A stretch of 64,000 nt of DNA from an uncultured Verrucomicrobiota bacterium (GTDB lineage: Bacteria > Verrucomicrobiota > Verrucomicrobiia > Palsa-1439), in the NCBI GenBank assembly GCA_903847335.1, contig CAINDI010000069.1, positions 1,677 through 65,676 on the forward strand, in the 5' to 3' direction. Below, one piece after another: positions 61,250 to 63,235 of the stretch. A model generated the notes under the pieces. The model saw only the letters and a program-made list of their open reading frames with translations, ran no database searches and had not been told where the DNA came from. Positions within the stretch are counted from its first letter, which is position 1, and every line of letters starts with the position of its first letter. The translations under genes and the position numbers were made by a program.

Positions 61250-63235
61250 CTAGCCTTTGTAATGATGAAACATACTGGCGAGCAGAATCAGTTCGGGATG
61301 TGCCGCCTGTAACTTCGGCAAGACCACGCGGATTCGCGACTGATACGCCGCCAACTTTTCACGCAACGGCTGGAGATCGTCAATCTTGTCCCAATGCAAA
61401 CTCTGCAAGTCGAGGACGAGCTTAGCTTTGCTCTGAGCGAGTGAATCGTGAATCCGCTGACCGAGACCGGCGGAGTGCGCCGAGGAAAGCGCGCCTTCCA
61501 AGCGGAGCCAGACTTGCTTCCGAGCGTGTTGAAGCTCGACTTGAACATCCAGCTCCGGAATCGCGACTTCGCTCGGCAATTTTTCCCACAGGTGAAATGC
61601 CTTCCAACCTCGACTCGGCAACCGGTACTCGGTCCGAATCAGTTTTGGATTTTGGAAAAGATTAAACTTGAGCGTGATGGCCGTCCAAATCGCCGCGCCA
61701 ATTCCGAGCACGGACTTGAAAGTCTGCGCCAGTGTTGGCTTGCCGAGTTCCGCGATGATTTGCTGTTCCAGCGTCCCAATCCACCGGCGGATAATTTGAT
61801 TCGGGCCAAAAACTCGCCCAGCCAGAAATACCGGATAAGCGCACCGCAAGTTGTCGGCGTAGATTTCCGCCTTTTTCCGGAGGAGCGGATTCGGTGAGTT
61901 CTTGAGCTTCTGGTAACCCAGAAATTGATTTTCAAGAGTTCGGAAAATACTCGGGCCGAGCCGTTGAAAATCCTGCTCGAAACACCAGCGTTGAAGATTC
62001 TCAATCTCTTCCGGTGACAGCGTCGGGTGTTTCATCATCGTGGTGAACCCGTCCGCGCGCCGGTAAAGCATCTCGGGGTTTTGCACGTATTTTTCGTGAA
62101 GCAAATTCTCGCGATGCACCCGTTCATTAAACGGCGTACCGGGCACCGGCCCGTAAATCAAATACTGGCCGAGCGCCGGCTTAAGCTTCATCAATCCGTC
62201 GAGTTCTTGCGCAATAACCTCCGGTGTTTGGTAATCGAAACCAATAATCATCGAGGTTAGAATCGTGATTCCGTGTTCGCGAAATTCCGTCAGAATTTCG
62301 CCCACCGGCCGGCCTTGCTGCTTCGCGTAACCGGAGCGCGTGCCTTCGTAGCCAATCCAGAAACCGTCAATTCCCATTTCGAGAATCTCTTCGACGGTAT
62401 ACTGACTGATTGCCTTGATGCTGGAGAATGCAAAAATCGAAAGCGATTTCCCACTCTGCATTACCGCCTCGCGAAACTCCATGGCGCGTTTTTTATTCAA
62501 CAGGAAATCTTCATCGATAATCAAGAAGACCAGATTCGGATCAGTGTCGAGATACCGCTCGATGACATTATAGATGTCGCGCCCTGTCGGCAAAAGTTTG
62601 ATGTGTTTGCGTTTGAAGAAATGCGACGTGCAGCAGAAATCGCAACCATTCGGACAGCCGAGACCCGCAAAAATCTTACCGGTGCCAGAAACCTTCCATC
62701 CGAACACCTTCAGCCAGCTCACAATCAACGGATTCTTGTACGGCATCGGAATCTCCGGCTCGCCCAGCAGCCGACGCATGAACGCAACGCCTTCTTCCCG
62801 GCAGATAAAATCGGAATACGGCTGCAACTCTTCATCGGTCAAAATCGTGCCATAACCGCCAAGAATGATTTTTGTATTCGGCGCATACTTCCGCACCAAC
62901 GCCGCCATGTCTTTCACCTTGTGAAAAATCGCCATCAGGAACGAAATCCCAACGTAATCGTAGCCTTTCTTGAGCTCCTTAATAAACTCCCGCTTCGACG
63001 GGTACTGCAACACCACCGTCGGCGAGTCGAGATTTTCCGCGATGTATTCGAGCGAGAATTGCACGTTCACCGTCCGCGGACTAAAAATTCCCTGCGCTCG
63101 AGTCACTTGCCGGTACAGCAATTCATAGCCCACCGACGGCGCATCGCCGTATTGTGGTCCCATCGGTCGGCAAACAGTTGTCAATAATATGGTTTTTTTC
63201 ATTAAACTCGGTTCATTGCGGTCAAGAAACGCCAC
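61250..63235 (-). CDS. B12-binding radical SAM protein with C-terminal STAS-like (anti-sigma-factor-antagonist-like) domain
   Basis: 661 aa; N-terminal B12-binding domain, radical-SAM cysteine motif CPNGCDFCC, and a C-terminal ~100 aa resembling a STAS domain (LRLEGALSSAHSAGLGQRIHDSL...KLVLDLQSLHWDKIDDLQPLREKL...RVVL). Confidence 0.65.
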   Translation of the reverse strand: MAFLDRNEPSLMKKTILLTTVCRPMGPQYGDAPSVGYELLYRQVTRAQGIFSPRTVNVQFSLEYIAENLDSPTVVLQYPSKREFIKELKKGYDYVGISFLMAIFHKVKDMAALVRKYAPNTKIILGGYGTILTDEELQPYSDFICREEGVAFMRRLLGEPEIPMPYKNPLIVSWLKVFGWKVSGTGKIFAGLGCPNGCDFCCTSHFFKRKHIKLLPTGRDIYNVIERYLDTDPNLVFLIIDEDFLLNKKRAMEFREAVMQSGKSLSIFAFSSIKAISQYTVEEILEMGIDGFWIGYEGTRSGYAKQQGRPVGEILTEFREHGITILTSMIIGFDYQTPEVIAQELDGLMKLKPALGQYLIYGPVPGTPFNERVHRENLLHEKYVQNPEMLYRRADGFTTMMKHPTLSPEEIENLQRWCFEQDFQRLGPSIFRTLENQFLGYQKLKNSPNPLLRKKAEIYADNLRCAYPVFLAGRVFGPNQIIRRWIGTLEQQIIAELGKPTLAQTFKSVLGIGAAIWTAITLKFNLFQNPKLIRTEYRLPSRGWKAFHLWEKLPSEVAIPELDVQVELQHARKQVWLRLEGALSSAHSAGLGQRIHDSLAQSKAKLVLDLQSLHWDKIDDLQPLREKLAAYQSRIRVVLPKLQAAHPELILLASMFHHYKG

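Follow-up and report, generated by a model that had tools for sequence, protein, structure and literature searches.

At its far end, a 64,000-nucleotide stretch of DNA from an uncultured Verrucomicrobiota bacterium (GenBank assembly GCA_903847335.1, contig CAINDI010000069.1, positions 1,677 to 65,676 of the forward strand; we call the whole of this stretch the window) carries a gene for a soluble protein of three parts: an N-terminal Rossmann-like domain that resembles B12-binding domains, a radical S-adenosylmethionine (SAM) barrel with a helical domain after it, and a STAS domain at the C-terminus (Table 1). A sequence-only reading of the window had described this radical SAM-STAS protein as a B12-binding radical SAM enzyme with a STAS-like appendage, had suggested that it is regulated by partner switching, and had placed its gene in an operon with an overlapping aldo/keto reductase gene.

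The open reading frame (ORF) reported in that reading is indeed open over all of its 661 codons, but its start is probably a different one. More than 200 homologs (76-100% identity) are 650 amino acids (aa) long and have an N-terminus of the form MxKK(V/I)LLT, and others have been called from the next methionine, which gives 637 aa. Because homologs begin at one of these two positions, comparison of their sequences makes ATG 63202 (MKKTILL...) the most likely true start, yielding a protein of 650 aa, and GTG 63235 merely the longest possible start. Residues are numbered here in the 650-aa protein (from ATG 63202), except where we refer to the ORF, which is numbered over 661 codons from GTG 63235. 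The full-length AlphaFold model of the protein (predicted local distance difference test, pLDDT, 81.6; predicted template modeling score, pTM, 0.72) was judged by pLDDT and by secondary structure.

Table 1. Features of the radical SAM-STAS gene and of the gene directly downstream, in window coordinates.
Feature	Positions	Strand	Basis or remark
Maximal ORF, radical SAM-STAS protein	61250..63235	-	Uninterrupted, 661 codons from GTG 63235; stop TAG 61250-61252
N-terminal Rossmann-like, B12-binding-like domain	62753..63202	-	Residues 1-150; alternating beta/alpha in AlphaFold
Radical SAM core, beta-hairpin then partial (beta/alpha) barrel	62048..62725	-	Pfam, AlphaFold secondary structure, Foldseek
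CPNGCDFCC, the CX3CX2C [4Fe-4S]/SAM cluster motif with an adjacent fourth Cys	62630..62656	-	Translation; CPNGCDFC at 62633-62656
All-helical C-terminal domain of the catalytic core	61667..62014	-	Helices 397-512, pLDDT mostly 85-97
Linker	61556..61666	-	LFQ(N/H)PxLxRTxYR motif ends the core, then a poorly conserved, low-confidence tether
C-terminal STAS domain	61253..61555	-	ORF residues 561-661 (550-650 in the 650-aa protein)
HWDKIDDL, loop and helix start replacing the SpoIIAA DSSG phosphorylation loop	61373..61396	-	HMMER alignments, family columns, secondary structure
Aldo/keto reductase gene, directly downstream, local neighbor	60326..61240	-	Pfam Aldo_ket_red 69.8 bits

The likeness of the last ~100 residues to a STAS fold had been read from a few short strings (LRLEGAL, KLVLDLQSL, DDLQPLREKL, and RVVL), all of which are present in the translation, and a Pfam or profile search had been proposed as a check. 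For the window protein on its own, that check gives a sub-threshold result: A full-length scan returns no STAS match, and the last 123 residues scanned alone stay below threshold against PF01740 (14 bits, E 0.04). A lone sub-threshold match is unconvincing, and we therefore relied on evidence at the level of the family. There, profile searches do return STAS, so the outcome that the sequence-only reading had named as refuting it, a C-terminus without any STAS match in such searches, did not occur. Two profiles were used, one (A1) from an alignment of 45 non-redundant C-terminal segments and the other (A2) from full-length family members. The mean column identity of 74% in A1 shows a conserved C-terminal region and not a variable tail. 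The top four matches of the A1 profile among 177,635 PDB sequences are SpoIIAA (1tid, 1auz, 1th8) and TM1442 (1sbo), aligned nearly full length over ~95 residues, and the same four are the sole matches of the A2 profile at E<=0.01 (E 1.6e-4 to 3.7e-3). When the members of A1 were scanned against Pfam one by one, 41 of the 45 matched PF01740 weakly (best E 1e-4) and 36 matched PF13466, and no other family came near. Divergent fragments of the family reach the Pfam STAS threshold by themselves (P0199 with 26.1 bits, P0186 with 22.6 bits), and precomputed STAS matches are present for P0234, P0266, and P0279.

Structure prediction leads to the same domain. The AlphaFold model of the C-terminal domain, made from A1 (pLDDT 80.9, pTM 0.75), has the element order beta-beta-alpha-beta-alpha-beta-alpha, and the full-length model repeats the same elements. 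In a Foldseek search of the PDB with the domain model, ranks 1-16 are all anti-sigma antagonists (TM1442, RsfB, SpoIIAA, RsbV, RsbS, and others), with a best E of 1.9e-5, a probability of 1.00, and TM-scores of 0.55-0.63 (normalized by target length); the probability is 1.00 for 1vc1, 8ih8, 1tid, 6m36, 6jhk, and 4qtp, and the transporter domain YchM (3ny7) is matched as well. The domain shares both fold and element order with SpoIIAA (1auz, 1tid, 1th8), RsbV (6m36), TM1442 (1vc1/1sbo), and RsfB (8ih8), and it keeps from these single-domain antagonists the G-x-L strand and LVLDL strand motifs. Across the family, the retained motifs are W-x-R-L-E-G in strand 2, LVLDL in strand 3, and, where helix 2 ends, the basic segment YRSRIR, which is the best-conserved stretch of the domain across phyla. 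Between core and STAS lies a linker (residues 513-549) whose pLDDT falls below 50 at residues 528-533.

Because profile searches and structure prediction, independently of each other, both give STAS as the sole significant match, we regard the assignment of the predicted C-terminal domain to STAS as sound. The contrary explanation, that the C-terminus is a variable radical SAM extension with a chance likeness to STAS, could point to the low score of the window protein alone and to its absence from the full-length scan, as well as to an hhalign comparison of the family with a single SpoIIAA sequence, in which the probability is 36.6%; set against that convergence and the conservation of the domain, it is close to refuted.

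The remainder of the protein agrees with the class-B-like B12/radical SAM architecture and the CPNGCDFCC cluster that the sequence-only reading had seen in it, on the evidence of Pfam, AlphaFold, and Foldseek. In the AlphaFold model a beta-hairpin (residues 160-178) precedes the radical SAM barrel, which extends up to residue ~385. The three cluster cysteines, C183, C187, and C190, are invariant in an alignment of 52 homologs from several phyla, and C191 is 98% conserved. Pfam Radical_SAM (PF04055) matches residues 192-341 with 29.8 bits against a gathering score of 29.5, a marginal pass (the divergent member P0161 scores 31.6), and Pfam B12-binding matches residues 83-153 with 25.7 bits, under its gathering score of 32.1, a match marked as weak in most homologs too. 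With the full-length model as query, the best Foldseek match is MgmA (9ccb, E 4.9e-11), followed by AprD4 (6fd2), CysS (9n1d), TokK (7kdy), and OxsB (5ul2). These best class-B-type matches have E-values of 5e-11 to 1.5e-7 at a sequence identity of merely 12-16%, the probability is 1.00 for many radical SAM structures, and MiaB/RimO (7mjx, 4jc0) rank after the class-B-type enzymes with E ~1e-6. The class B enzymes MgmA, CysS, TokK, and OxsB, together with AprD4, share with the predicted structure of the radical SAM-STAS protein a Rossmann-like B12-type domain, a barrel with a CX3CX2C motif, and a helical C-terminal region. To our knowledge, none of the radical SAM structures at the top of this list carries a STAS domain.

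By its modeled architecture, then, the core is class-B-like, but it differs from the class B set in being so distant in sequence, in falling outside every NCBIfam cut-off, and in that its own use of cobalamin is putative. Among the PDB sequences, the A2 profile matches no radical SAM enzyme even at E<=10. Of the NCBIfam radical SAM families tested (ApyD, BchE, HpnJ, PhpK, AprD4, HpnR, Tes, and others), none reaches its curated cut-off; ApyD scores 47.2 of 750 bits, BchE 43.6 of 481, and HpnJ 40.3 of 578, and the model for the Tes lipid synthase does not match the protein. With scores an order of magnitude under the cut-offs and no PDB sequence match, we rejected an assignment of the core to any known enzyme. 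We also considered an auxiliary cluster and, judging by cysteine patterns in the sequence, rejected it: The extra conserved cysteines C11, C134, C191, and C407 fit neither SPASM/twitch nor methylthiotransferase patterns. From the architecture, we expect that the enzyme most likely carries out a C-methylation with the help of cobalamin, or a related rearrangement. Because the B12-binding Pfam match is sub-threshold, it is from architecture only that we infer the use of cobalamin.

The window itself contains a cluster for corrinoid-dependent methyl transfer (40813-48598), with a RACo-type reductive activase, a DUF1638 protein, two AraC regulators, a PhyH protein, and an unassigned protein of 362 aa, in addition to a corrinoid protein (44196-44930; DxHxxG motif, B12-binding at 90 bits plus B12-binding_2) and a protein of the homocysteine S-methyltransferase type (47735-48598). 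From these sequences the organism evidently uses cobalamin, so the cofactor is plausibly available to the radical SAM-STAS enzyme.

The all-helical domain that completes the core is also present in paralogs that lack STAS. Its last helix (61667-61730, ORF residues ~503-523), moderately hydrophobic yet invariant in sequence, closes the catalytic core in STAS-bearing and STAS-less forms alike and contains invariant positions, namely S497, A504, W506, T507, and then F516-Q517-H518-P519 (650-aa numbering). The moderately hydrophobic helix of this domain, SVLGIGAAIWTAITLKF, has a Kyte-Doolittle maximum of 1.56 over 19 residues, which is borderline. Membrane anchoring through this helix is disfavored, given its borderline hydropathy and the lack of a clear membrane span; because its sequence is highly conserved, it is more likely to be a buried or substrate-lining helix.

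In canonical antagonists, a conserved serine is the defining regulatory site (PMC8256260). In every alignment, LSFMDSSGL of SpoIIAA pairs with LHWDK(I/V)DDL of the radical SAM-STAS family, which places Ser58 opposite Ile618 of the ORF (61382-61384), and predicted helix 2 starts two to three residues after this position, as it does in SpoIIAA. Among 204 distinct C-terminal domains, the Ser58-equivalent column contains no serine at all; it is occupied by V (107), A (29), T (21, or 10%), I (14), G (12), and E (11), and the flanking columns are 1-7% Ser/Thr. As far as sequence can tell, the STAS domain of this family is without the phosphorylatable serine of SpoIIAA/RsbV-type antagonists. It thus departs from the single-domain antagonists in being covalently attached to an enzyme, in having HWDK[V/I/A]DDL in place of the DSSG serine loop, and in having no kinase or phosphatase gene nearby. 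Neither an RsbW-like kinase, a SpoIIE/PP2C phosphatase, nor a second STAS gene occurs among the scanned genes of the window (Pfam scan of 1-26.2 kb and 37.5-51.3 kb, precomputed annotation of 51-64 kb, and a by-eye reading of 26.3-37.5 kb as NADH dehydrogenase subunits), and the same three, the kinase being sought as a protein with HATPase_c_2 only, were not found at 13 annotated homolog loci.

These results bear directly on partner switching, the most exciting reading of the fusion, yet one that the evidence disfavors. It would require two further enzymes from elsewhere in the genome, a kinase like RsbW/SpoIIAB and a phosphatase of the PP2C type, to phosphorylate and dephosphorylate STAS and so toggle the enzyme or let it sequester an anti-sigma factor. 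The fold and the best sequence matches do come from genuine anti-sigma antagonists, a tenth of the family has Thr at the Ser58-equivalent column, and the search for kinases and phosphatases covered loci rather than whole genomes. There is also a precedent for a phosphorylation-controlled fusion of STAS to an enzyme in the STAS-glycosyltransferases of cyanobacteria (All4160, All2285, XssP), in which STAS acts directly on the attached biosynthetic enzyme and not on a sigma factor (PMC13555669). In the All4160 type, STAS is N-terminal on a sugar transferase and is phosphorylatable, with Alr3423 as the kinase and HenR as the SpoIIE-type phosphatase (PMC13555669). The radical SAM-STAS protein shares with it the fusion of STAS to an enzyme, but here the domain is C-terminal and has no site, the enzyme that bears it is of the radical SAM type, the phyla are different ones, and no kinase/phosphatase pair was found at the examined loci. 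Because the phospho-site is absent (the DSSG-equivalent loop has no conserved Ser/Thr and reads K-I-D-D in the window protein) and because neither a kinase or phosphatase nor a partner conserved across 83 loci is found at the examined loci, we consider the regulation by partner switching proposed in the sequence-only reading to be very unlikely.

The family is large. When each GTDB species was represented by one genome, the scan placed it in at least 590 loci or species genomes, of which the best 80 come from metagenome-assembled genomes (MAGs) of the Verrucomicrobiia/Limisphaerales type at 73-82% identity; with the divergent member P0161 as query, members also appear in Elusimicrobia, Thermoanaerobaculia, and Desulfobacterales. 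STAS is kept, with its predicted fold intact, in all 223 of the 223 full-length members examined from several phyla, and C-terminal identity within the Verrucomicrobia set is 58-100%. When the C-terminal profile was run against 1.84 billion representative proteins, it gave 98 matches, and those that we examined are fragments or members of the same radical SAM family; for this reason, the STAS subfamily appears to be essentially confined to this enzyme. Several Verrucomicrobia MAGs contain two full-length STAS-bearing copies on different contigs (L008+L019, L049+L059, L012+L044, L056+L074, and L047+L065). At a further set of loci (L022, L029, L030, L040, L051, L061, and L062, also L025 and L039), a gene 74-78% identical to the Verrucomicrobia-type protein occurs in records titled 'uncultured Bifidobacteriaceae' (one each being titled Pirellulaceae and Limnocylindrales), and these MAGs have probably been mistitled or misbinned.

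Four paralogs of 527-562 aa end right after the LFQHPxLxRxxYR motif and so have no STAS domain. At the two STAS-less loci examined (P0240 and P0262), the contig continues into the next gene, and for that reason the absence of STAS from these two is genuine. A split STAS gene beside such paralogs was looked for as a Rosetta-stone test, and none was found at these two loci. The Elusimicrobia MAG GCA_001799975.1 encodes both a STAS-bearing and a STAS-less form. The paralogs are 71-72% identical to the window protein over residues 1-385, and for STAS-bearing members the same sequence pairs give 67-89% identity to it in the core (residues 1-385), 23-82% in STAS, and 21-69% in the tether; between phyla, the figures are 67-75% for the core, 23-54% for STAS, and 21-66% for the linker. 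Because a clade of STAS-less paralogs exists, STAS is a discrete add-on, one that evolves faster than the core, and the gap in identity fits either a lineage-specific tracking of partners or a looser constraint on the domain.

In another reading, STAS would be a decayed domain with a purely structural function, stabilizing or multimerizing the enzyme without any part in signaling or recruitment. The lost phospho-site, the lack of partner genes, the low conservation between phyla (23-54%), and the dispensability of the domain in the paralog clade would all suit such a role. It is nevertheless unlikely, because the intact predicted fold throughout the 223 full-length members, the 58-100% identity within the Verrucomicrobia set, and the maintenance of the W-x-R-L-E-G, LVLDL, and YRSRIR motifs argue against decay.

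The add-on may instead take part in catalysis, recruiting a substrate carrier or binding an anionic ligand (acyl carrier protein, or ACP, a nucleotide, or a lipid head group) much as a TRAM domain would. The methylthiotransferases MiaB and RimO, themselves among the structural matches, have a similar tripartite layout, in which the radical SAM barrel stands between a small alpha/beta (flavodoxin/Rossmann-like) domain at the N-terminus and another small domain at the C-terminus; in MiaB/RimO the latter recruits substrate. They differ from the radical SAM-STAS protein in that their N-terminal domain binds an auxiliary cluster through three cysteines, a pattern not seen here, and in that their C-terminal domain is TRAM and not STAS. 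The complex of the YchM STAS domain with ACP (3ny7) is among the fold matches, SpoIIAA has been reported to bind GTP/ATP through a conserved loop (PMC8256260), the best-conserved STAS stretch across phyla is the basic YRSRIR, and a core so extremely conserved suggests that the substrate is conserved too, as a macromolecule or a central metabolite would be. Against this, the loop proposed for binding the nucleotide phosphates is the very part of the domain that has diverged, and the rate at which STAS evolves, much higher than that of the core, would be unexpected if it bound the same conserved substrate. Further, because the STAS-less paralogs retain an almost identical core, the core can presumably act without the domain. 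On balance, we consider recruitment of this kind less likely than not, though close behind our leading interpretation.

Our leading interpretation, still tentative and given a little less than an even chance, is that STAS provides a self-sufficient class-B-type radical SAM core with a constitutive module for docking or regulation, and is no kinase/phosphatase switch. The core, with its Rossmann-like B12-type domain, [4Fe-4S]/SAM barrel, and helical cap, would run a radical reaction on a strongly constrained putative substrate; a flexible tether of ~35 residues would join it to the divergent STAS without a phosphorylatable serine, and STAS, either by binding a partner protein or by folding back onto the core, would control access to the enzyme or its activity. 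The analysis shows which domains make up the protein, that the C-terminal one is predicted to fold as STAS, that its phospho-site has been lost, that STAS-less paralogs exist, that STAS evolves faster than the core, and that the examined loci share no conserved gene partner. In All4160 and XssP, moreover, STAS can act directly on an attached biosynthetic enzyme (PMC13555669). We infer the docking or regulatory role itself by analogy. The nearest analogs are the SLC26/SulP transporters (YchM, 3ny7), in which a non-phosphorylated C-terminal STAS domain gives a larger machine a constitutive means of interaction or regulation. The Mla lipid transporter likewise has a non-phosphorylated STAS module, MlaB. 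In these systems STAS has either a transporter in the membrane or an ABC ATPase as its partner, but here the partner would be a soluble radical enzyme.

Several observations weigh against this docking interpretation or against parts of it. The STAS score of the window protein itself, 14 bits, lies well under the gathering score of 22.6, and the hhalign alignment of the family with the single SpoIIAA sequence, although in the same register and with an E of 3.6e-4, is weak at its probability of 36.6%. For the cofactor, the B12-binding match is sub-threshold, and the second-best structural match is AprD4, an enzyme of the same architecture that is not known to use cobalamin. No partner was identified, and among 83 loci no conserved neighbor suggests one. 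The conserved basic YRSRIR segment could just as well point to a small anionic ligand, and phosphorylation at a non-canonical residue of the STAS domain could still occur. A bolder extension of the docking interpretation would be that a kinase-independent STAS couples a probably housekeeping radical SAM enzyme to a signaling or assembly network, through reversible docking to a regulator or a stressosome-like scaffold, or that the enzyme moonlights as a factor that sequesters a regulator. We consider this quite unlikely; if it were true, enzyme activity and signaling would be reciprocally linked in Verrucomicrobia, Elusimicrobia, and their relatives.

The searchable literature contains no paper in which radical SAM enzymes are connected with STAS, with SpoIIAA, or with antagonists of anti-sigma factors, which agrees with the earlier remark that the fusion had not been described, although the automatic pipeline of IMG does label some members 'radical SAM.../anti-anti-sigma regulatory factor'. 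Another automatic name, 'haloalkane dehalogenase', is given by JGI to P0023, P0036, P0037, P0053, P0056, P0064, P0066, and P0084, and also to P0232, P0239, and P0280, and looks like a propagated misannotation. What we describe is a widespread, uncharacterized radical SAM family with a novel accessory domain, and not a new category of system. The family probably performs an important reaction, because it is large, its core is 67-75% identical between phyla, and it has neither a named family nor a solved relative detectable by sequence. Regulation of radical SAM enzymes is usually ascribed to expression or to the supply of clusters and cofactors, and a dedicated signaling-type domain would point to post-translational control or to targeted recruitment of radical chemistry. 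The case extends the recent finding of direct action by STAS on biosynthetic enzymes to a form that is unable to use the canonical phospho-switch, and the STAS-bearing and STAS-less paralogs, sometimes in one genome, provide a natural comparison for what the domain contributes.

Gene context adds little to these conclusions. In the species of the window, the genes run in the order mnmA, radical SAM-STAS, aldo/keto reductase, CheB/CheR-PAS, and PAS-histidine kinase-receiver. The aldo/keto reductase is adjacent on the same strand, as the sequence-only reading had stated, but the two genes do not overlap, and their adjacency is limited to this species, so the operon is not a conserved one. The ATG of the reductase lies 9 nt beyond the TAG of the radical SAM-STAS gene and in the same reading frame (61240-61252), and read-through of this single stop would fuse the enzyme to the reductase. 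When ORFs from 83 loci were clustered, nothing was shared by more than 10 of them; the commonest neighbors are an RRM protein (10/83) and an ABC-F ATPase (6/83), and at the annotated loci outside the window's species the neighbors are all different. With no common partner in the 83 clustered and 13 annotated loci, we rejected the inference of a conserved operon, and because no neighbor is conserved, gene context in Verrucomicrobia yields no function for the enzyme. The only Rfam match in the whole window is a single tRNA, so neither a cobalamin nor a SAM riboswitch was found by this means, and a scan for promoters and terminators gave background level. A role in anti-phage defense was considered and rejected, as PADLOC matches neither the enzyme nor the reductase.

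The one hint that recurs comes from two Elusimicrobia loci, at which a family member adjoins a radical SAM-SPASM protein that resembles AhbD/NirJ2, and a CopD-like DUF4149 membrane protein is present as well. Identity between the two AhbD/NirJ2-like copies is 61%, and their TIGR04545 scores of 377-395 bits lie under the cut-off of 500; the family members beside them are the STAS-bearing P0226 and the STAS-less P0240 (L091 264-9368; L087 5497-8602; L088 57-2680). We take these neighbors as a mere lead to tetrapyrrole or cofactor chemistry. Locus L091 also holds a TrxB-like reductase and two more radical SAM genes, one of them RlmN/Cfr-like and fused to an isochorismatase domain, as well as a tyrosine phenol-lyase gene that overlaps the 3' end of the family gene, and P0240 is followed by heptose/sugar-nucleotide genes.

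Elsewhere in the window, the region directly downstream of the reductase (55573-60295, reverse strand) encodes a CheB-CheR (methylesterase/methyltransferase) fusion of 886 aa with a long coiled coil and PAS_10, overlapping by 8 nt a PAS-PAS-histidine kinase-receiver protein of 689 aa; this pair follows the reductase in the window's species only. A second region on the reverse strand (11409-17650) is an inovirus-like (filamentous phage) module, whose ORFs mostly have no Pfam or PHROG family match. It is marked by an assembly ATPase of the Zot/pI type (11409-12449; Pfam Zot 65.6 bits, phrog_197/1675) and further comprises a small membrane ORF, a Cys-rich secreted ORF of 516 aa (12825-14375), a DUF2726 protein (15848-16441), and an ORF of 183 aa.

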